Shown piece by piece: positions 4,979 to 47,098 of a stretch of 58,570 bases of DNA (position 1 is the stretch's first letter; each line of letters starts with the position of its first letter). This DNA is from Nitrospinota bacterium (GTDB lineage Bacteria > Nitrospinota > Nitrospinia > Nitrospinales > VA-1). The stretch spans positions 1 through 58,570 of the forward strand of contig JACNKA010000118.1 in assembly GCA_014382285.1 (NCBI GenBank), read 5' to 3'. The position numbers and the translations under genes are program-made. A model generated the notes under the pieces. It saw only the letters and a list, made by a program, of their open reading frames with translations. It was not told where the DNA came from and searched no databases.

Positions 4979-6919
4979 TTAGCATTTTAAAAAGATAGCC
5001 GCAAGAGGAGGCAAAACCAGACTGATAGAACAAGGTTGCCCGTGCCAGCTCATCGGTACGCTTTGCACCGGCTGTGGATTACCGACCCCTCCTCCGCCAA
5101 ATTCTTCGGCATCGCTGTTAAGAATTTCCTTCCAAGCTCCTTCGCAAGGAACCCCAACCCGATAATCAAACCTTGGAACCGGGGTAAAGTTTAAGGCCAC
5201 GATAATTTTTTCAACAGGATCAATCCCCTTCCGCATTAAAATGAGAGCGCATTGTTGAGAGTCACTGCAATCAATCCATTCAAACCCTTCAGGAGAAAAC
5301 TCATTTTCAAAAAGAGCTGGCTCATTATTATAAAGATGGTTGAGGCTTTTGAACCAAAGTTGCAGTCCTTTATGGTTTGGGTATTGCAAGAGATGCCAGT
5401 CAAGACTCTTGTCATGATTCCATTCTGCCCACTGCCCAAACTCTCCGCCCATGAAGAGAAGTTTTTTCCCCGGCAGGGCAAACATATTGCCGAATAACAA
5501 TCTCAAGTTGGCAAATTTTTGCCAGTCATCCCCCGGCATACGAGCTATCAAGGAACCCTTGCCGTGAACCACTTCATCATGAGATAGGGGTAAAATAAAA
5601 TTTTCATGATAGGCATACAACATACGGAAGGTTAAGCGATCGTGGTGAAATTTCCTGTGAACAGGATCTTTTTTCATATACTCCAGCGTATCGTGCATCC
5701 AGCCCATGTCCCACTTCATTCCGAAACCCAGGCCACCCACATAAGTGGGTTTTGAAACCATGGGCCAGTCAGTTGACTCCTCAGCCATGGTCTGGGCATG
5801 AGGATGTTTGTCATAGACCTGTTCATTAAATTTCCGCAAAAAACCAATGGCCTCCAGGTTTTCCCGACCTCCATGAATATTGGGAATCCATTCCCCCTCT
5901 TTTCTTGAGTAGTCCAGATAGAGCATGGACGCTACGGCATCAACCCTCAAGCCATCAATGTGAAACACGTCCAACCAATAAAGCGCGTTGCTGATAAGAA
6001 AACTAGCTATCTCATTCCGGCCATAATTAAAAATATGCGATCCCCAGTCTGGATGAAAACCCTGTCGCGCATCGGCATGTTCATAGATATGGGTGCCATC
6101 AAACAAGCCCAAAGCAAATTCATCGACAGCAAAATGGGAGGGTACCCAGTCCAGTATCACCCCAATATTATTCTGGTGGAGGTGATCCACAAGATACATA
6201 AACTCCTGTGGCGTTCCGTAACGACTTGTTGGGGCAAAATATCCCGTACACTGGTAACCCCATGATGCATAATAGGGATGCTCCATAACAGGAAGAAACT
6301 CTACATGAGTGAACTCCATCTCTCTGAGGTACTCCGTTAAAAGCGGAGCCAACTCAAGATAGGAGAGTGGAGAATCACCCTCCGTACGCATCCAGGACCC
6401 AATATGCATTTCATAAATGGAAACAGGTCTATTATGCAAGTTATGTCTCTTGCGCCCCTGCCCCATCCAGTCTTGATCCTTCCAGGAGTAATCCAGATCC
6501 CAGACAATGCTCCCGCTCTTAGGCGGTGTTTCGCAGAACAGCGCAAAAGGGTCGGCCTTCTCAACCTGGTATCCATTATTGCGGGATTGAATATAGTACT
6601 TATAGATATTGCCCTTCTCAACTCCGGAAAAGAATCCCTCCCATATCCCAGACTCTTGTTTAGGGCGCAAGGGATGTTTTCCCTTCTGCCAACCATTGAA
6701 GTCGCCCACCACATCGACATGTTCCGCGTTGGGAGCCCAGACCGAAAAATAAGTCCCAGACACTCCATCCACCTCAACCCTGTGGGCCCCCATCTTTTCA
6801 TAAAGACAAAAATGATTTCCCTCATTGAAAAGATGAAGGTCATCATTCGTCAAAAGAGAAAAGGATGCGACCTTCTCATCTTCATTTTTTTTGGGCATTT
6901 TGGGTACGCTTCGAGTCAT
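4979..6919 (-). CDS. glgB: 1,4-alpha-glucan branching enzyme
   Basis: FSVWAPNA, IYEMHIGSW, SWGYQ, LDWVPSHF, GLRVDAVASMLYLDYSR, AEEST, LSHDEVVHGKGSL. Confidence 0.97.
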   Translation of the reverse strand: MTRSVPKMPKKNEDEKVASFSLLTNDDLHLFNEGNHFCLYEKMGAHRVEVDGVSGTYFSVWAPNAEHVDVVGDFNGWQKGKHPLRPKQESGIWEGFFSGVEKGNIYKYYIQSRNNGYQVEKADPFALFCETPPKSGSIVWDLDYSWKDQDWMGQGRKRHNLHNRPVSIYEMHIGSWMRTEGDSPLSYLELAPLLTEYLREMEFTHVEFLPVMEHPYYASWGYQCTGYFAPTSRYGTPQEFMYLVDHLHQNNIGVILDWVPSHFAVDEFALGLFDGTHIYEHADARQGFHPDWGSHIFNYGRNEIASFLISNALYWLDVFHIDGLRVDAVASMLYLDYSRKEGEWIPNIHGGRENLEAIGFLRKFNEQVYDKHPHAQTMAEESTDWPMVSKPTYVGGLGFGMKWDMGWMHDTLEYMKKDPVHRKFHHDRLTFRMLYAYHENFILPLSHDEVVHGKGSLIARMPGDDWQKFANLRLLFGNMFALPGKKLLFMGGEFGQWAEWNHDKSLDWHLLQYPNHKGLQLWFKSLNHLYNNEPALFENEFSPEGFEWIDCSDSQQCALILMRKGIDPVEKIIVALNFTPVPRFDYRVGVPCEGAWKEILNSDAEEFGGGGVGNPQPVQSVPMSWHGQPCSISLVLPPLAAIFLKC

Positions 6920-40359: not shown

Positions 40360-43300
40360 TTAATGAACGGAAGTTAACTCTTGTTGTTCTGCATAACCCT
40401 GTCTTCGGGAAAATCGGTACTGCAGAACCATGGCATAGAGTGCAGGAAGAACCACCAGATTCAATAATGTCGCGGAAACCATTCCTCCTACCATTGGAGC
40501 GGCAATTCGTTTCATCACTTCAGATCCCGTTCCAGTTCCGATCATGATGGGAATGAGTCCGCCCACTGTGGAAATGACAGTCATCATGATGGGACGAATC
40601 CTCGAGCTGGTTCCTTCCAGAACGGCTTTGAGCACATCCACAGAACTCTTGATCTCACCACGGGCCATCCGTTTTTCAAAAGTCTGGTTCACATAGACCA
40701 GCACCAGAACTCCAATTTCTGTCGCCACCCCGGCAAGTGCAATGAAACCCACCGCCACAGCCACACTCAAATCGTATTTCAAAAAATACAAAATCCACAC
40801 CCCGCCAATTAATGCCAGCGGGAAGGAGAGCATAACAATAACGGTTTCGGCAACTCTTCTAAAGTTTAAATACAACAATAGCAAAATAAGTGACAAGGTC
40901 AATGGCACCACCACCTTCAACCGCTCCTTCGCCCGCTCCATATATTCATACTGGCCGCTCCATACCAGGTTATAGCCGGGAGGAAGCACCAGACCCGCAT
41001 TGACAATTTTTTTCGCCTGTTCCACATAGGTGCCCACGTCAATATCTTTCAGATCGATGTATACCCAGGCATTGAGTCTCGCATTTTCGGTTTTAATTAC
41101 AGGAGGACCTTTTCTGATAACAATTTTGGCGACCTGAGCCATGGGAATATGCTCCCCGCCCGATGTGGGGATAAGCACTCTGTGCAATTTATCCAAATCA
41201 CTTCTAAGTCCACGAGGATAACGGACGTTTATAGGATAACGCTCCAGCCCCTGGATAATGGTCGATACATTCATGCCACCGATAGCCGTCTGGATAACAT
41301 CCTGAATATCGCCAACCGTCAGTCCATAGCGGGAAGCCTCTTCCCTGTTAATTTCAAAGTCCAAATAATTCCCTCCCACAACCCGCTCTGAAAACACACT
41401 TAAGGTTCCCGGAGCATTTTTTATGAGAGCCTCCACTTCCTTCCCCAGTTTTTCCAATACAACCAAATCATTTCCTGAAATTTTAATACCCACCGGAGTT
41501 TTAATTCCCGTGGATAACATATCAATGCGGGTCTTGATAGGCATGGTCCATGCGTTGGTAACACCGGGAATCTTTAAAGCCGCGTCCATCTCCTGGATCA
41601 ATAATTTTTGCGTCATGCCCTCCCGCCATTCTGATTCAGGCTTCAGAGCGATGATCGTTTCCACCATACTGAGAGGAGCAGGGTCAGTCGCCGTTTCCGC
41701 CCGCCCTATTTTCCCAAAAACATGATGCACTTCTGGAAAGGTTTTAATTATCTTGTCCGTTTGTTGCAGAAGTTCTTTCGCTTTGGTGATCGAAATTCCC
41801 GGCAGAGTGGTTGGCATGTACAACAAATCGCCTTCATTCAATGGGGGCATGAATTCAGAACCCAGCCGTTGCAAAGGAATATAGGTCACAGCCATCAATA
41901 GTAATGCGACAACAACCACCAGCACCTTCATCCTCAATGCGAGCCAAATGAAAGGTTTGAACAACCAGACAAACAACAGGTTGAGAGGGTTGTAACGTTC
42001 TGGCAGAACATAACCACGAATAAAATATCCCATTAATACCGGAACCAAAGTGATCGCAAGAAGCGCGGAGCAGGCCATCGAATAGGTTTTCGTGAAAGCC
42101 AAAGGAGAAAAAAGCCGACCCTCCTGCGCCTCCAGGGTAAAGACAGGAAGAAATGAAACAGTAATGATCAACAGGCTGAAAAATAGTGCCGGCCCCACTT
42201 CTGAGGCGGCTTCATATATAATCTGCCAATGGTCTTTTCCCCCGCGATCGGATTCCAGGTGCTTGTGCGCATTTTCGATCATAACAATCGCGCCATCGAT
42301 CAACGCGCCGATGGCTATCGCAATTCCCCCCAAAGACATTATGTTTGCGTTCAATCCCTGCTGGTTCATAATAATGAGGGCCATCAAAACGCTTAAAGGA
42401 ATGGTGATGATCGCAACCAGTGCTGACCTCAGGTGCAAAAGAAACAAAACACATATGATGGCTACGGCGATGCCTTCTTCAATCAGCTTTTCTTTTAAGT
42501 TGTCAACGGCTCTCTCTATCAGCCCAGAGCGATCATACACAGGAACAATTTCCACCCCTTCGGGCAAACCAGACTTTAAAGATTCCAGTTTATTTTTAAC
42601 GTTCTGGATAACTTCCAAAGCGTTTTCTCCAAACCGCTGTATGACAACACCCCCCACCACTTCACCTTCGCCATTCAGATCAACAACTCCACGTCTTAGT
42701 TCGGGGCCCAGTCGAACACGGGCAACGTCCCGCATCAAAACAGGCGTTCCATTTTTAGCCACGCCTAACGGTATACTCTTGATGTCCTCCAGGTTCTGGA
42801 TATAACCCAGGCCACGAACCATGAATTCTGTTTCAGACATTTCCAGCAAACGTCCACCCACGTCATTATTACTACGTTTGATCGCCGCCACGATTTTGTG
42901 CAAAGGCAGGTCATAGGCCGCCAGTTTATTGGGGTCGACCTCAACCTGATATTGTTTGACAAAACCGCCGATACTGGCAACTTCTGAAACTCCCGGAACG
43001 GTTTGCAACTCATATCGAAGATACCAGTCCTGAATAGAGCGCAATTCAGACAAATCGTGATTTCCGGTTTTATCCACCAGCGCGTATTCAAAAACCCAAC
43101 CGACCCCCGTAGCATCCGGCCCCAAAGTAGGGCTGATGTTCGGAGGCAAACGCCCGGACACAAAGTTCATCTGTTCCAGAACCCGGCTTCTGGCCCAGTA
43201 CATATCCGTTCCATCTTCAAAAATAATATAAACGAAAGATAATCCGAAAAAGGAGTAGCCCCGCACCACTTTCGCGTAGGGAACAGAAAGCATTGCGGTC

Positions 43301-43509
43301 GTCAAAGGGTAAGTGACCTGATCTTCTACAATTTGAGGGGCTTGACCGGGAAACTCTGTGAAAATAATGACCTGCACATCGCTCAAGTCAGGGATAGCAT
43401 CCAAAGGCGTTCGATTCAGAGAATAAACACCCCACGCAACCACAAAGGCGGTAGCCAAAAGCACCAGAAAGCGATTCTTTAGAGAAAACCCGATAATGTG
43501 TTTTATCAT
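40360..43509 (-). CDS. cusA: Cu(I)/Ag(I) heavy-metal efflux RND permease
   Basis: DAIPDLSDVQVII, LGPDATGVGWV, GDLLYMPTTLPG, TDPAPLSM, WTMPIKTRIDM (Met-triad regions), RIRPIMMT. Confidence 0.96.
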   Translation of the reverse strand: MIKHIIGFSLKNRFLVLLATAFVVAWGVYSLNRTPLDAIPDLSDVQVIIFTEFPGQAPQIVEDQVTYPLTTAMLSVPYAKVVRGYSFFGLSFVYIIFEDGTDMYWARSRVLEQMNFVSGRLPPNISPTLGPDATGVGWVFEYALVDKTGNHDLSELRSIQDWYLRYELQTVPGVSEVASIGGFVKQYQVEVDPNKLAAYDLPLHKIVAAIKRSNNDVGGRLLEMSETEFMVRGLGYIQNLEDIKSIPLGVAKNGTPVLMRDVARVRLGPELRRGVVDLNGEGEVVGGVVIQRFGENALEVIQNVKNKLESLKSGLPEGVEIVPVYDRSGLIERAVDNLKEKLIEEGIAVAIICVLFLLHLRSALVAIITIPLSVLMALIIMNQQGLNANIMSLGGIAIAIGALIDGAIVMIENAHKHLESDRGGKDHWQIIYEAASEVGPALFFSLLIITVSFLPVFTLEAQEGRLFSPLAFTKTYSMACSALLAITLVPVLMGYFIRGYVLPERYNPLNLLFVWLFKPFIWLALRMKVLVVVVALLLMAVTYIPLQRLGSEFMPPLNEGDLLYMPTTLPGISITKAKELLQQTDKIIKTFPEVHHVFGKIGRAETATDPAPLSMVETIIALKPESEWREGMTQKLLIQEMDAALKIPGVTNAWTMPIKTRIDMLSTGIKTPVGIKISGNDLVVLEKLGKEVEALIKNAPGTLSVFSERVVGGNYLDFEINREEASRYGLTVGDIQDVIQTAIGGMNVSTIIQGLERYPINVRYPRGLRSDLDKLHRVLIPTSGGEHIPMAQVAKIVIRKGPPVIKTENARLNAWVYIDLKDIDVGTYVEQAKKIVNAGLVLPPGYNLVWSGQYEYMERAKERLKVVVPLTLSLILLLLYLNFRRVAETVIVMLSFPLALIGGVWILYFLKYDLSVAVAVGFIALAGVATEIGVLVLVYVNQTFEKRMARGEIKSSVDVLKAVLEGTSSRIRPIMMTVISTVGGLIPIMIGTGTGSEVMKRIAAPMVGGMVSATLLNLVVLPALYAMVLQYRFSRRQGYAEQQELTSVH

Positions 43510-43519
43510 AATGTTCTCC

Positions 43520-43546
43520 CACTAAAAGGCATTGGGCCTTTTAGTG
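43520..43546. other. Perfect 11-bp inverted repeat between cusB stop and cusA SD
   Basis: cactaaaaggc-attgg-gccttttagtg. Confidence 0.8.
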
Positions 43547-45202
43547 CTTAGGCTCCTCTTTCAAAGTTAGTTCCATGCTCTTGCTTTTTTTGCCGGACCT
43601 ATTCATCATCTTCTCATCCATTTTGTTTAACGCTTCTTTAAGCTGACTTTCAGAGTCGATCAGAAAAACCGAGGAGGTCACTACCTTTTCGCCTACTTTT
43701 AAACCTTTCAGGACCTGAATATAGCCCTTGCTTTTTACTCCCAGGGTAAGTTCCCGCGAATCAAACGCGCCAGAAGGACGTTGAACCATCGCCATGGTTT
43801 TATCCCCAGCATAAATCACAGCTTCTTCAGGTATCGCCATTTCTTTTCGGGCCGCTTCAGGCTTAAGGGTGACGTTGGCATACATTTCCGGTTTCAACTC
43901 ACCGCCAGGGTTAGAGAACTCTACCCGCACTTTTAAAGTGCGGGACTTAGAATCCATTATCGGGTCAATAAAAGTCACTTTACCTTTGAATTTTTTTCCA
44001 GGAAAATAGGAGAGATTCATCTCCGCTTCCTGTCCCAGCTTGACCCAAGGCACTTCATACTCGTAGACATCCACAATGACCCAAATGTTAGAGAGGTCGG
44101 CAATCATGTATAAATTCATTCCAGGCTGAACATGCATTCCTTGCAAGGCATTTTTCTTGACGACAACCCCCTTTACCGGAGAGTGAATATGCATGGTTTT
44201 CCTGACTTTTTTATTTTTAATCAACTCCGCAATCTGATGTCCTGGAACATCAAATAATTCCAGGCGCTTTAGAGTGGAGTCCACCAATCCTTTAGCACCC
44301 CGGCTGATCTCAGGGAAGGAACTGCTTTTCAGGGACTCCTGATATTTCAAGGCCAGAATCAATTCTTCCTGAGTGGTGACCAGTTCTGGACTGTAAATCT
44401 CCAGAAGAACATCATTTTCATTCACTTCCTGACCGGTAAAATCGACCTCCAGTTTATCTATCCATCCGCCGTATTTAGTATGAATGTGGTGGATCAAGCG
44501 TTCATCATAAGTCAGGCGTCCGATGGTTCTTATTTCCCGACTCAAGGATCGCTTTTTTACAACTGCCGTTTTAACCCCAATGTTTTGCACCATAGTGGGA
44601 TTAATGGAGACGTTCCCTCCTATTTCATCCTTATAAACAGGCACTAAATCCATTCCCATCGGCCCTTTGCCAGGCTTGTCGGAGATATAATCAGGGTTCA
44701 TCGGAGCCCGCCAATGTTTGATTTCTCTTCCTGGCTTCTTTGTCGCACTGCCCACCGGTTTCACAGACGGGGCATCGACTTTGTCCACCATCTCCAGCGT
44801 TTTTCCATACATCATGCTGGCAATTGGCTTCACCTTCGTGACTCCAACCAACACCCATTTTCGGCCCTCATCAACCCATTGCGACAACACATCCGGCCGG
44901 GTTCCGAATCCCACAAGAAAAGCCGCCCCCAACAAGCTGAACAATAAAAATATTCGTAAGACACTCAACCCGGTTTTCTTTCTCAACATAGCCATCCGTT
45001 CAAAACGTTTTAAAGGGAATAATATCTCCTCTTGATTCACGTCATCAGGGGTTGGACTATGCCCGCTATAGTTTTCAGTCTGTCGCTCATTGCCCCGCTC
45101 TGGAGTCTGGGAAATTTTTCCAACAACCGCATCGCTCAACGGGTCACCTATACCTTTTTCCAGATGTTGGTCTTCATTTTCATGATTTATCTCATTCATC
45201 AC
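43541..45202 (-). CDS. cusB: RND periplasmic adaptor subunit with N-terminal heavy-metal-binding motif
   Basis: WRAPMNPDYISDKPGKGPMGMDLVPVY, IYSPELVTTQEE, RTLKVRVEFSNP, LKPEMYA. True start ambiguous (45202 or near 44995). Confidence 0.92.
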   Translation of the reverse strand: MMNEINHENEDQHLEKGIGDPLSDAVVGKISQTPERGNERQTENYSGHSPTPDDVNQEEILFPLKRFERMAMLRKKTGLSVLRIFLLFSLLGAAFLVGFGTRPDVLSQWVDEGRKWVLVGVTKVKPIASMMYGKTLEMVDKVDAPSVKPVGSATKKPGREIKHWRAPMNPDYISDKPGKGPMGMDLVPVYKDEIGGNVSINPTMVQNIGVKTAVVKKRSLSREIRTIGRLTYDERLIHHIHTKYGGWIDKLEVDFTGQEVNENDVLLEIYSPELVTTQEELILALKYQESLKSSSFPEISRGAKGLVDSTLKRLELFDVPGHQIAELIKNKKVRKTMHIHSPVKGVVVKKNALQGMHVQPGMNLYMIADLSNIWVIVDVYEYEVPWVKLGQEAEMNLSYFPGKKFKGKVTFIDPIMDSKSRTLKVRVEFSNPGGELKPEMYANVTLKPEAARKEMAIPEEAVIYAGDKTMAMVQRPSGAFDSRELTLGVKSKGYIQVLKGLKVGEKVVTSSVFLIDSESQLKEALNKMDEKMMNRSGKKSKSMELTLKEEPKH

Positions 45203-45239: not shown

Positions 45240-46514
45240 TTAAAACAAATTTTTCCCGGCACTCTGTTCAATCACTGCCAGGTTTTTTTCATAATCCGTC
45301 AGTTCACGGTGATACTTGATCTGCCAATTAAATAATGTCAACTGATTGTCCAAAAGAGTCAGAAAATCAACTTTATCGACGCTGTAACCGGCGAGTGCCG
45401 ATTCAAGAGACTGCCGAGCCTGAGGAAGAATTCCCTGCTCAATCAACCCAAGGGTTCTACTGCCCTGCTGTTCCTTATCAACCAGTTTCTTTAAATTCAG
45501 AAAGATTTGGTTTTTGGCCTTGTTATAGGTCTCACTCGCCATTTCCACCTTGTAAGCCGTTTCCGAAACACGACGTGACTGTTTGGTTTTGTACCAGATG
45601 GGAATATTGATGCCGACAAAGGCCGAAACAAAATCAGGACGATCTATCATTTGGGTCCCGTCTCTTTGTCCATATTTAAGTCCAACATTAAAATCAGGGT
45701 AGTATTCCTTTTCAGCTAACTTTTTCGATGACCCATATCGCTCTTTGAGAGAAAGTATTTTAGACAACAAAGGGCGATGCTTCTCCGCGATAGCTTGAAG
45801 TTTCTCCACGGTGAAATTGAAATCCGTTTTGCCAATGCCATGCGGAATCATCAAATCCTCCTGAGGCAGGAGATTCATCAGGGAGTTCAGCTTTGCCTTT
45901 TCAAATCCCTCGAGTTTTTGCAGTTCAATCAGTCTCTCCATAATCTTGCTCAGTTCCACCTGGGCTTTGAGTACATCCTGTTGCAGCCCTTTGCCCACTG
46001 AATACTTTGACTCGGCAATGACGACAAACTGCTCCAGAAGTGTTTTGTTTTCCTTTGTGATATTCGTAGCCTCCAAGACAAAACACAATTCGTAAAAAGC
46101 CAGCTTCACATCACGGGTGATGGTCAGTCTGGCTTCTTCCAGATCCTGCTCGGTGATGGCTATATTTTTCCCTGCGATTTCCGCCTTGAGTCCCAGCTTT
46201 CCGGGGTAAGGCAGTTTTTGGGAAAGTGAAAACAGTTTTTGCGTCATATTCTCCTGAGACAAATCAAACGTATCGACCGGCATATTCATCAACTGAAATT
46301 GCAGAATCGGGTCGTCCAGAGAACTCACCTGAGAAGGGACTTCCTGAGCCGCTTTGATTCGATTTTGAAACTCTTTTATCGCAGGATTGTTTTCCAACGC
46401 TGTCGTGATAAAACTCTGAAGAACCGATTTGAATGGATTTTCCTGTGCACTACCTGAATCCGGGAACAGCATCAGTAACGTTCCCATAAATAGTAGAAAC
46501 CGAATGGATCTCAT
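45240..46514 (-). CDS. cusC: TolC-family outer-membrane efflux protein (CusC-like)
   Basis: Signal peptide after ATG 46514 (SD GGAAGAGG), ALENNP, LSQKLPYPGK, YSVDKVDFLTLLD; first gene of the cus operon. Confidence 0.85.
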   Translation of the reverse strand: MRSIRFLLFMGTLLMLFPDSGSAQENPFKSVLQSFITTALENNPAIKEFQNRIKAAQEVPSQVSSLDDPILQFQLMNMPVDTFDLSQENMTQKLFSLSQKLPYPGKLGLKAEIAGKNIAITEQDLEEARLTITRDVKLAFYELCFVLEATNITKENKTLLEQFVVIAESKYSVGKGLQQDVLKAQVELSKIMERLIELQKLEGFEKAKLNSLMNLLPQEDLMIPHGIGKTDFNFTVEKLQAIAEKHRPLLSKILSLKERYGSSKKLAEKEYYPDFNVGLKYGQRDGTQMIDRPDFVSAFVGINIPIWYKTKQSRRVSETAYKVEMASETYNKAKNQIFLNLKKLVDKEQQGSRTLGLIEQGILPQARQSLESALAGYSVDKVDFLTLLDNQLTLFNWQIKYHRELTDYEKNLAVIEQSAGKNLF

Positions 46515-46633
46515 AACTGCCTCTTCCAATATGTGGAGTTGATTTTTCCCCAGCCTGCTAAATTAGCGCAAGACTAAAATTATAGCTAAATTGGGCTAAT
46601 GCAGGGATGGAGCAACAAAACAAGCTGGAAAGG

Positions 46634-46900
46634 TTATTGAGGGGGGTGATCGAAAGGCAATGGCGCCGGAGTGGGCATATCTGCCAAGGCATCATCCGGG
46701 CAAGCGGTGAAGGAGTACTCATACTGCAGGCCTGAAAGCTCAGGCACACTGATGATACAGCAGTTTTCACAAGCCGTCTTGACCGTGCAATCATCCATAT
46801 GAAGAGGCATGGTGATGGCAGTGGAAGACGTAAACATAAAGCAGATAGCCAGAAACAGAGCAACCGCCAAACGCTTTTGATTGTGTGAAAAAGCTTTCAT
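46634..46900 (-). CDS. 88-aa exported Cys-rich protein with Pro-rich C-terminus; putative CutF/CruR (DUF2946)-like leader
   Basis: Signal-like N-terminus, HMDDCTVKTACENCC, C-terminal MPTPAPLPFDHPPQ; 119 nt upstream of cusC on the same strand. Confidence 0.65.
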   Translation of the reverse strand: MKAFSHNQKRLAVALFLAICFMFTSSTAITMPLHMDDCTVKTACENCCIISVPELSGLQYEYSFTACPDDALADMPTPAPLPFDHPPQ

Positions 46901-47098
46901 ACTATTCTCATCGGTTACAGTGCTAACAATATAAACCCTTTTAAACGATTTGTCCATAAGTGAGCCCGGTTTAGACTTGGAAGAATACTGACAACCATTT
47001 TCACAAGGTTTCTAAAAAATCCTGAACTGTTTTATTAATTGGGTTTCGCGGCTGGGCTGTAATAAACTGGAGGAGTGTTAAATTTTTCCCAGTGACCC

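Follow-up and report, generated by a model that had tools for sequence, protein, structure and literature searches.

A candidate CutF-like copper-responsive leader upstream of cusCBA in Nitrospinales

How might a copper-efflux pump be controlled in a bacterium in which some of the usual copper regulators are not found? In the textbook scheme, the transcription of such pumps is controlled by the CusRS two-component system or by CueR, a regulator of the MerR type. The question is raised by a contig of a Nitrospinota bacterium (JACNKA010000118.1 of assembly GCA_014382285.1), analysed here over its whole length of 58,570 nucleotides (nt) and referred to below as the window. It carries a cusCBA-type copper pump operon with a short open reading frame (ORF) in front, and neither CueR nor CsoR was found in the genome (94% complete). 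To our knowledge, translational sensing by a nascent exported peptide is represented only by the CutF-CutO pair, whose target is an oxidase, and the CruR-BfrG pair, whose target is an importer. It appears, with a probability of about 65%, that the 88-codon ORF is a cis-acting, CutF-like stalling leader which gates the translation of cusCBA as a copper switch. The leader is under selection at the amino acid level on three cysteines and a proline pair at fixed spacing, and the RNA helix that follows it is conserved and covarying. It accompanies cusC obligately, and its paralogues head multicopper oxidase genes. By analogy with CutF, the peptide would be exported, bind copper and pause the ribosome at HPP, and the direction of the response would be the same.

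The leader peptide and its conservation

The ORF lies on the minus strand, with its ATG at 46900 and its TAA at 46636-46634, and comprises 88 codons and a stop; its product is MKAFSHNQKRLAVALFLAICFMFTSSTAITMPLHMDDCTVKTACENCCIISVPELSGLQYEYSFTACPDDALADMPTPAPLPFDHPPQ. An earlier note on this DNA had described an 88-amino-acid (aa) ORF with a Sec-type N-terminus, a cluster of metal ligands and a distinctive C-terminus, and this description holds on reading the sequence: the N-terminus has the predicted character, the ligand motif is H34-M-D-D-C38-x5-C44-x2-C47-C48, and the C-terminus is PTPAPLPFDHPPQ. The parts of the leader are as follows.

46634..46900, minus strand: leader ORF, 88 codons plus TAA
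46811..46900, minus strand: predicted Sec signal peptide, codons 1-30 (basic n-region, hydrophobic core at residues 10-24, small residues before M31)
46757..46810, minus strand: candidate Cu(I) ligand cluster, codons 31-48 (M31-P-L-H-M35-D-D-C38-x5-C44-x2-C47-C48)
46664..46756, minus strand: spacer codons 49-79 of the leader, fixed in length and free in sequence (from the alignment, the codon changes and a predicted local distance difference test score, pLDDT, below 50)
46637..46663, minus strand: tail PLPFDHPPQ, codons 80-88, candidate ribosome-pausing motif (Pro86 at 46645-46643, Pro87 at 46642-46640)

A basic n-region, a hydrophobic core of 15 residues and small residues before M31 are common to all members of the family, and an S-x-A pattern followed by M, read from the sequences at the predicted end of the signal peptide, is kept among them. 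On these features the N-terminus of the leader is predicted to be an export signal. In an AlphaFold2 model built with the order-wide alignment, a helix at residues 6-23 is the sole confident element; the mature part has no secondary structure, and pLDDT is below 50 around the cysteine motif. Codons 49-79 could serve as a candidate tunnel ruler, that is, as a stretch whose length matters.

A search of 5.8 billion proteins with the leader returned 15 clusters of relatives of about 88 aa, all of them unannotated, and two further relatives, at approximately 31% identity, came from running phmmer exhaustively against 1.8 billion representatives. The relatives belong to Nitrospina and to metagenome-assembled genomes of Nitrospinales, and homologues occur in 24 of 41 Nitrospinales genomes, representing 8 of 11 genera. 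The leader ORF is a real gene, far beyond chance. With regard to known families, the leader has no Pfam match at E<=1 and no NCBIfam match, ten divergent relatives have none in either collection (DUF2946 included), and a sequence search of the PDB gave no relative. A profile of the order-wide alignment, run against the same 5.8 billion proteins, recovered unannotated relatives only and no bridge to proteins labelled PF11162.

The order-wide alignment (A7) comprises 19 sequences, includes divergent families of the order and averages approximately 22% identity to the window protein. Only five of its columns are invariant, namely C38, C44, C47, P86 and P87. All family members are 86-99 aa long, and the distance from the CxxC pair to the proline pair (C47 to P86) is 38±1 residues and almost free of gaps, the intervening sequence not being conserved. 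M31 and M35 are invariant within two Nitrospina-type subfamilies. The family tails read [FY][DY]HPP[QGKR] or PPPK[ITS] and always end 1-2 residues before the stop. Of the features that the earlier note had expected upstream of cusC in relatives, the conserved cysteines and HPP or PP are present, at an invariant spacing throughout the order, and RAPP is not.

The pattern of codon changes was examined in the Nitrospina clade. In the nine tail codons 83-91, pairwise differences comprise 178 synonymous and 9 non-synonymous changes, and the cysteine codons show synonymous changes only, whereas changes in codons 71-82 are mostly non-synonymous. This pattern therefore indicates that the peptide is under selection, chiefly at the cysteines and prolines and on the distance that separates them.

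The genomic linkage of the leader is equally regular. Each homologue with enough flanking DNA is followed by an outer-membrane factor (OEP) gene and then by CusB and CusA. Conversely, a search of the 41 Nitrospinales genomes with the window CusC yielded 21 orthologues, and a leader stands directly upstream of 20 of them (18 by search match, and those in G034 and G023 by eye); the remaining orthologue lies at a contig edge, so that all 20 assessable cases have the leader.

In other Nitrospinales, paralogous leaders of 89-93 aa, of the form SASMHHMDDSDC-x5-C-x2-C ... PPPK[ITS]-stop (one of them ending in YHPPK-stop), are located 143-333 nt upstream of multicopper oxidase genes.

L055:1602-4037, L056:1790-4338, L057:1459-3912, L060:1607-1873 and L048:1498-3276: oxidase-linked paralogues

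The existence of both pump-linked and oxidase-linked members therefore ties the family to copper by two independent kinds of target. At L056, an anti-Shine-Dalgarno-like segment, UUCCCUUAAA, right after the leader stop matches the Shine-Dalgarno (SD) region of the oxidase gene. One contig (L049, G029:C51:6500-12893) contains three leader-type ORFs: a tandem on the plus strand, in which an ORF at 5494-5760 with a PPPKS tail is followed 322 nt later by another at 6086-6343 (AVHHMDVSDC...CDHCC), and a third on the minus strand at 2336-2623, upstream of an OEP gene.

A natural variant was found in a complete Nitrospinales chromosome of the same genus (OZ252246; L012:6180-6230, corresponding to G014:C1:~737,250-737,600). 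The bases lost in a 47-nt deletion are exactly those of the tail codons, the leader stop and the anti-SD arm described below, and the SD sequence, cusC and the rest of the spacer are intact; in addition, a 1-nt deletion shifts the frame in the signal-peptide region. This chromosome, a single case, probably carries a naturally derepressed pump, as the stalling-leader model predicts.

The spacer RNA and the cusC Shine-Dalgarno sequence

The leader stop and the cusC start are separated by 119 nt, within which the following elements were delineated.

46515..46633, minus strand: leader-cusC spacer RNA, 119 nt, a rod of nested helices (RNAalifold, covariance model)
46625..46633, minus strand: anti-SD arm CCUUUCCAG, which starts 1 nt after the leader stop and pairs with 46520-46529 in both the minimum free energy (MFE) and the centroid fold
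46520..46529, minus strand: SD arm UUGGAAGAGG, the cusC Shine-Dalgarno sequence, 5 nt upstream of the ATG at 46514

The spacer measures 116-125 nt in the Nitrospina-type subfamilies and 94-136 nt order-wide. In 14 of 15 distinct spacers the MFE structure is a single rod, in whose closing helix the SD region of the OEP gene is paired with bases that begin 1-5 nt past the stop. The arms are complementary in subfamily A (CUUUUCCAAUU and AAUUGGAAGAG) and also in subfamily B (CCUCUAAAUCC and GGAAUUAAGAGG), where they differ from those of subfamily A, and locus L014 has a third version in which complementarity is kept. Each SD region was tested for duplex formation with random 18-nt windows of the same locus; in this comparison the segment after the stop ranked among the best 0.4-7% at 14 of 15 loci (empirical p 0.004-0.07; 0.44 at L011), in three lineages with different arm sequences.

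Since a joint MAFFT alignment of the spacers was useless for RNAalifold, recovering the apical hairpin only, the two subfamilies were folded apart and then bridged by a covariance model. RNAalifold gave the same nested topology for subfamilies A and B from different sequences, and a covariance model built from subfamily A alone finds subfamily B at E-values of 6e-4 to 9e-3. In the covariance-model alignment 90.7% of cells are paired, compared with 33-52% when the partners are slid by 1-3 columns. Double, compensatory changes occur at 25 of 33 pairs, and none of 500 shuffles reaches the observed values. The covariation signal is regarded as real because of the slid controls and the independent folds of the subfamilies.

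It was also modelled how a ribosome would affect the clamp. If the footprint of a ribosome that stands at the PP or stop codons is masked, the model gives the SD sequence a higher probability of being unpaired in 14 of the 15 sequences; for the GAGG core of the window, the modelled value rises from 0.16 in free RNA to 0.31 and 0.47 with the footprint masked.

The most conserved spacer element order-wide, kept even where the flanking helices differ, is an apical palindrome, TTAGCC-N6-GGCTAA(WWT). The window contains an imperfect copy, TTAGCC-N6-AGCTAT, in an apical hairpin around 46582-46599 on the minus strand. G-U wobble variants of the form UUGGCC...GGCUAA are present at L006 and L008, and because of them the element is favoured as an RNA hairpin. 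Rfam gave no match in this region.

Operon, transcription and neighbouring genes

The leader, cusC, cusB and cusA are consecutive on the same strand.

45240..46514, minus strand: cusC-type outer-membrane factor (OEP) gene, the gated gene in the model (PF02321 at 5.5e-35)
43541..45202, minus strand: cusB-type adaptor with a heavy-metal-binding domain (HMBD) (PF16576 at 1e-80; PF19335 at 2e-7; CusB NCBIfam model, 176 bits; exact start uncertain)
40360..43509, minus strand: cusA, Cu(I)/Ag(I) pump of the resistance-nodulation-division (RND) type (TIGR00914, 1256 bits)

The identification of the operon as cusCBA in the earlier note was confirmed by these family matches and by comparison with known pumps. 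The window CusA scores 1267 bits against E. coli CusA structures and 584 against ZneA, and its methionines align with all three of CusA M573/M623/M672, which we take to be the Cu(I)/Ag(I) site; the label cusCBA is therefore correct. CusB of the window has 553 aa (that of E. coli has about 407), and its long N-terminal extension includes the HMBD at residues 163-189. This extension may take over a chaperone role, since cusF is absent from the operon.

Upstream of the leader, a sigma-70-type promoter was recognised with 10 of 12 consensus matches in a consensus scan.

46928..46956, minus strand: sigma-70-type promoter of leader-cusCBA (-35 box TGGACA at 46956-46951, 17-nt spacer, -10 box TATATT at 46933-46928)

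Both hexamers are kept at an equal distance from the leader ATG in both subfamilies, and a same-strand scan between the leader and cusC revealed no promoter-like or terminator-like site. Gene callers give the leader as a protein of 107 aa (P0002) that begins at an ATG at 46957. The ATG-GAC-AAA at this position shares bases with the -35 box TGGACA, which is conserved, and the Y-I codons that look conserved correspond to the -10 box TATATT. The 107-aa extension is most likely promoter DNA rather than coding sequence, and its apparent conservation arises because its ATG-GAC-AAA is the -35 box. The short 5′-untranslated region at 46901-46920 (minus strand) contains ACCGATGAGA, of which CGAT is invariant in both subfamilies and CCGAT is kept in most members; CGAT lies 12-17 nt before the leader ATG, and its conservation goes beyond the need of a Shine-Dalgarno sequence alone.

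With regard to transcripts, metatranscriptome contigs match the region at 100% identity, one of them covering 46473-46759 (the cusC start, the whole spacer and half of the leader), and a contig from rRNA-depleted RNA-seq covers 46648-46829 of the leader. The leader region is compatible with a single transcript.

The operon is flanked on one side by a cluster of DUF4175, TPR-peptidase and MoxR genes and on the other by a PRTase pair, an SPFH protein, MsrA and cytochrome c peroxidase. The earlier note had seen neither cusRS nor cueR next to the operon, and no regulator gene of any kind, these two included, was found within about 10 kb on either side. In the lineage that carries leader P0007 (L001:3149-5941; also L002-L005), the DUF4175 gene and the leader are separated by an insertion that encodes a periplasmic binding protein of the phosphate-binding-like PBP_like_2 family and a HisKA/HATPase_c histidine kinase; this insertion may be a second layer of control, or it may be unrelated.

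The proposed switch, its alternatives and known systems

The stalling-leader model can be outlined as follows. In free mRNA, the nine bases after the leader stop would pair with the cusC SD sequence, close the 119-nt rod and keep translation of the pump low. The leader peptide would be exported by means of its Sec signal during its own synthesis. When the ribosome stands at His85-Pro86-Pro87-Gln88-stop, some 38 residues would separate the peptidyl-transferase centre from C44-x2-C47, placing the Cys/Met/His cluster at or past the tunnel exit, facing the translocon and the periplasm. Copper on the three invariant cysteines would then prolong the intrinsically slow Pro-Pro step; it could act by blocking disulfide formation or folding that otherwise pulls the chain out. 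The paused or terminating ribosome would cover and unwind the anti-SD arm, the SD sequence would be freed, and CusC, and with it CusBA, would be translated. The expected polarity is that of CutF-CutO, in which copper turns the target on, and not that of CruR, because the targets are an exporter and an oxidase. With neither CueR nor CsoR in the genome, the organism could rely on such a switch as a main response to copper.

Several points weigh against this reading. In E. coli with EF-P, two prolines in a row pause the ribosome weakly, and we know of no ribosome arrest demonstrated for HPP followed by Q, G, K or R. A distance of 38 residues would place the CxxC pair at the tunnel exit or in the translocon and not clearly in the periplasm, and the site of sensing is therefore ambiguous. 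On the RNA side, the cusC SD sequence of the window is predicted to be only 84% paired in free RNA, the window spacer folds only modestly better than shuffled sequences (z = -1.82), the closing helix is missing from the MFE fold in several distant genera (L052, L054, L048 and L057), and the count of covarying pairs is inflated, as it comes from an alignment fitted to the model. The metatranscriptome contigs carry neither strand nor start site and may stem from DNA carry-over. Finally, a two-component copper sensor may be encoded elsewhere in the genome, and in one lineage, noted above, a histidine kinase is inserted directly upstream of the leader.

Among the alternatives, the one that survives best, though it is unlikely, is plain translational coupling: translation of the leader to its stop would always open the helix, cusC expression would simply follow leader translation and transcription, and the cysteines and prolines would serve export or turnover. 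Such coupling agrees with the position of the anti-SD arm, which begins 1 nt past the stop and would be opened by any terminating ribosome. However, it leaves unexplained why only three cysteines and a proline pair are invariant, at a fixed distance of 38 residues and an identity of about 22%, why the tail is under strict amino acid selection, and why the alternative tail is PPP.

Still less likely is a role in trans, in which the mature peptide of 58 residues would be a periplasmic copper-binding protein standing in for CusF, and the RNA structure would be unrelated. The predicted export, the Met, His and Cys ligands and the operon without cusF are in line with this view, and CutF itself was at first conjectured to be a chaperone (PMC9426467). 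Yet no more than five residues are conserved, the sequence of the spacer varies freely, AlphaFold2 predicts no fold, the family HMM (hidden Markov model) of the CusF chaperone (PF11604) is not matched by the leader, and the window CusB has an N-terminal HMBD of its own. Moreover, members of the family also stand in front of multicopper oxidase genes, where a function like that of CusF would be senseless, and the invariant PP at the stop with its adjoining anti-SD arm would be unexplained.

A third alternative, and an improbable one, follows the logic of CruR: a default stall at HPP would shield the spacer from Rho, and copper would relieve the stall and lead to Rho-dependent termination, or the polarity would be reversed. 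CruR is reported to work in this way (PMC9426467), and by eye the spacer is rich in C and poor in G over its 5′ half. On the other hand, shutting off an efflux pump or an oxidase in response to copper would be maladaptive; the spacer, moreover, forms a rod with a high degree of pairing and not an unstructured rut site, and what is conserved is the pairing of the SD sequence. That the palindrome is a DNA operator for an unknown repressor, with the pump transcribed from a promoter inside the spacer, was suggested by its order-wide conservation and by a TAAAAT/TAATAT-like hexamer that follows it, but this candidate was rejected as highly improbable, since no acceptable -35 box lies at 16-18 nt and no same-strand promoter was detected in the spacer, the G-U variants fit RNA pairing and not a DNA palindrome, the window copy is imperfect, and the absence of any other match to the degenerate pattern in the whole genome argues against a regulon.

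Beyond the stalling-leader model itself, a more far-reaching proposal is possible, though it is put forward as tentative and rather doubtful. A minimal 'tunnel-ruler' sensor, consisting of C-x5-C-x2-C and [FY]-x-H-P-P (an uncharacterised arrest motif) exactly 38 residues apart, might suffice to convert periplasmic or translocon copper into pausing; it would be the main copper sensor of the phylum, and an exchangeable module, with an HPP tail for an RND pump and a PPPK tail for a multicopper oxidase. For the stalling-leader model itself, the compact constructs, about 400 nt in all, suit the study of HPP as a copper-tunable pause, and the leader switch may explain the copper response of abundant marine nitrite oxidisers without CueR and CsoR.

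PPP is a classical staller. In E. coli XPPP reporters, H before the proline run is among the strong stalling contexts (PMC4176338), which gives indirect support to HPP as a pause.

Arrest peptides provide the general principle: in secM-secA, arrest opens a structure that sequesters the SD sequence. Screens for SecM-like and RAPP-like 'RQH' arrest peptides looked for small unannotated upstream ORFs in which an export signal at the N-terminus is separated by more than 30 residues from a conserved motif at the C-terminus (PMC10987492, PMC12992588), and the Nitrospina leader has all four features, the export signal by prediction. It differs from these peptides in its target, which is cusC and not a sec or yidC gene, and in its [DY]-H-P-P, which falls outside the [RQH]-[AG]-P-P set.

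SilD (CusD) of Cupriavidus metallidurans CH34 (silDCBA on pMOL30, NC_007971) resembles the leader in that its gene, directly upstream of a Cu/Ag RND operon, encodes a small exported protein with Cys and His residues and, close to the C-terminus, a run of prolines; it has been labelled CutF-like (PMC9973294). It differs in having 131 aa and an RPPPRP located 14 residues from the end. In an hhalign comparison with the Nitrospina family, in which SilD represented the CutF-like proteins, similarity was confined to the signal peptide at a probability of 24%, and SilD itself has no PF11162 match.

CruR (Bp2923 of Bordetella pertussis, DUF2946) has an export signal, a CXXC motif and a C-terminal RAPP with a spacing of 45 residues; copper relieves the arrest, and Rho then terminates transcription (PMC9426467). 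The Nitrospina leader shares with it the export signal (predicted here), an invariant CXXC, a Pro-Pro adjoining the C-terminus, a conserved and fixed Cys-Pro spacing, and a place at the head of a copper-related operon in which the spacer is long. The affiliation with DUF2946 that the earlier note had in mind did not stand: the PF11162 HMM has no match to the leader at E<=1 or to ten diverse family members at E<=10, and a six-frame search found it in none of the 41 Nitrospinales genomes, with matches in control genomes. In contrast to CruR, the tail reads F-D-H-P-P-Q-stop ([FY][DY]HPP or PPPK[ITS] in the family) instead of RAPP, and the Cys-to-Pro spacing is 38±1 instead of about 45 residues. 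The target is an exporter, for which the opposite polarity would be expected, most likely through unmasking of the SD sequence and not through Rho-dependent termination.

The closest parallel is CutF of Rhodobacter capsulatus, the first gene product of cutFOG (PMC8456105). CutF combines a Sec signal and a CxxxC motif with PPP at its C-terminus; stalling induced by copper opens the stem-loop in which the cutO SD sequence is hidden, and EF-P works against the stall (PMC9973294, bioRxiv 10.1101/2025.02.05.636593). Like CutF, the leader is a small Cys-motif protein, exported according to prediction, with consecutive prolines at its C-terminal end, and its gene opens a copper-detoxification operon; the SD sequence of the target is hidden by an RNA stem that lies between leader and target, copper would be expected to turn the target on, and the PPPK-tailed paralogues of Nitrospinales precede multicopper oxidases, as cutF precedes cutO. 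Unlike CutF, with which it has no detectable sequence similarity, and without a Pfam match, the leader has C-x5-C-x2-C in place of CxxxC, [FY][DY]HPP-x-stop in place of PPP in its pump-linked tails, and a 119-nt multi-helix rod with a closing helix across the whole spacer in place of a local stem-loop.

The published rule set for 'CutF-like' proteins (Ozturk et al. 2023) comprises a length of <150 aa, a signal peptide, a PP that falls among the last 15 residues and, on the same strand, a downstream gene no more than 1000 nt away. The leader is 88 aa long and has a predicted signal peptide; its PP occupies residues 86-87, cusC follows at 119 nt on the same strand, and the modelled fold of the spacer has the further CutF-like feature of an RNA stem shielding the target SD sequence. 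The published lists are mostly of Pseudomonadota and Bacteroidota, in contrast to the Nitrospinota described here, and Nitrospinota did not appear in the portion of the supplementary text of PMC9973294 that was searched. Apart from the DUF2946 HMM, all sequence-level checks that the earlier note had proposed turned out in its favour, and its proposal that a leader of CutF/CruR logic may act on an RND pump is supported, within the reach of sequence analysis, by the invariant cysteines and prolines at fixed spacing, the genomic linkage, the covarying SD helix, the oxidase-linked PPPK paralogues and the lack of cusRS or cueR nearby and of CueR and CsoR in the genome. The idea as such is not new, as 5,334 CutF-like proteins have been reported, with RND outer-membrane genes as their commonest neighbour (Ozturk et al. 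2023, PMC9973294). Judged by sequence, the Nitrospinales-wide family is a new and unannotated one, in a new phylum, within an already published functional class rather than a new category. It adds to that class an unusually clean comparative case on cusCBA, with five invariant residues, a fixed ruler, a covarying SD clamp and a natural deletion of the tail and anti-SD arm.

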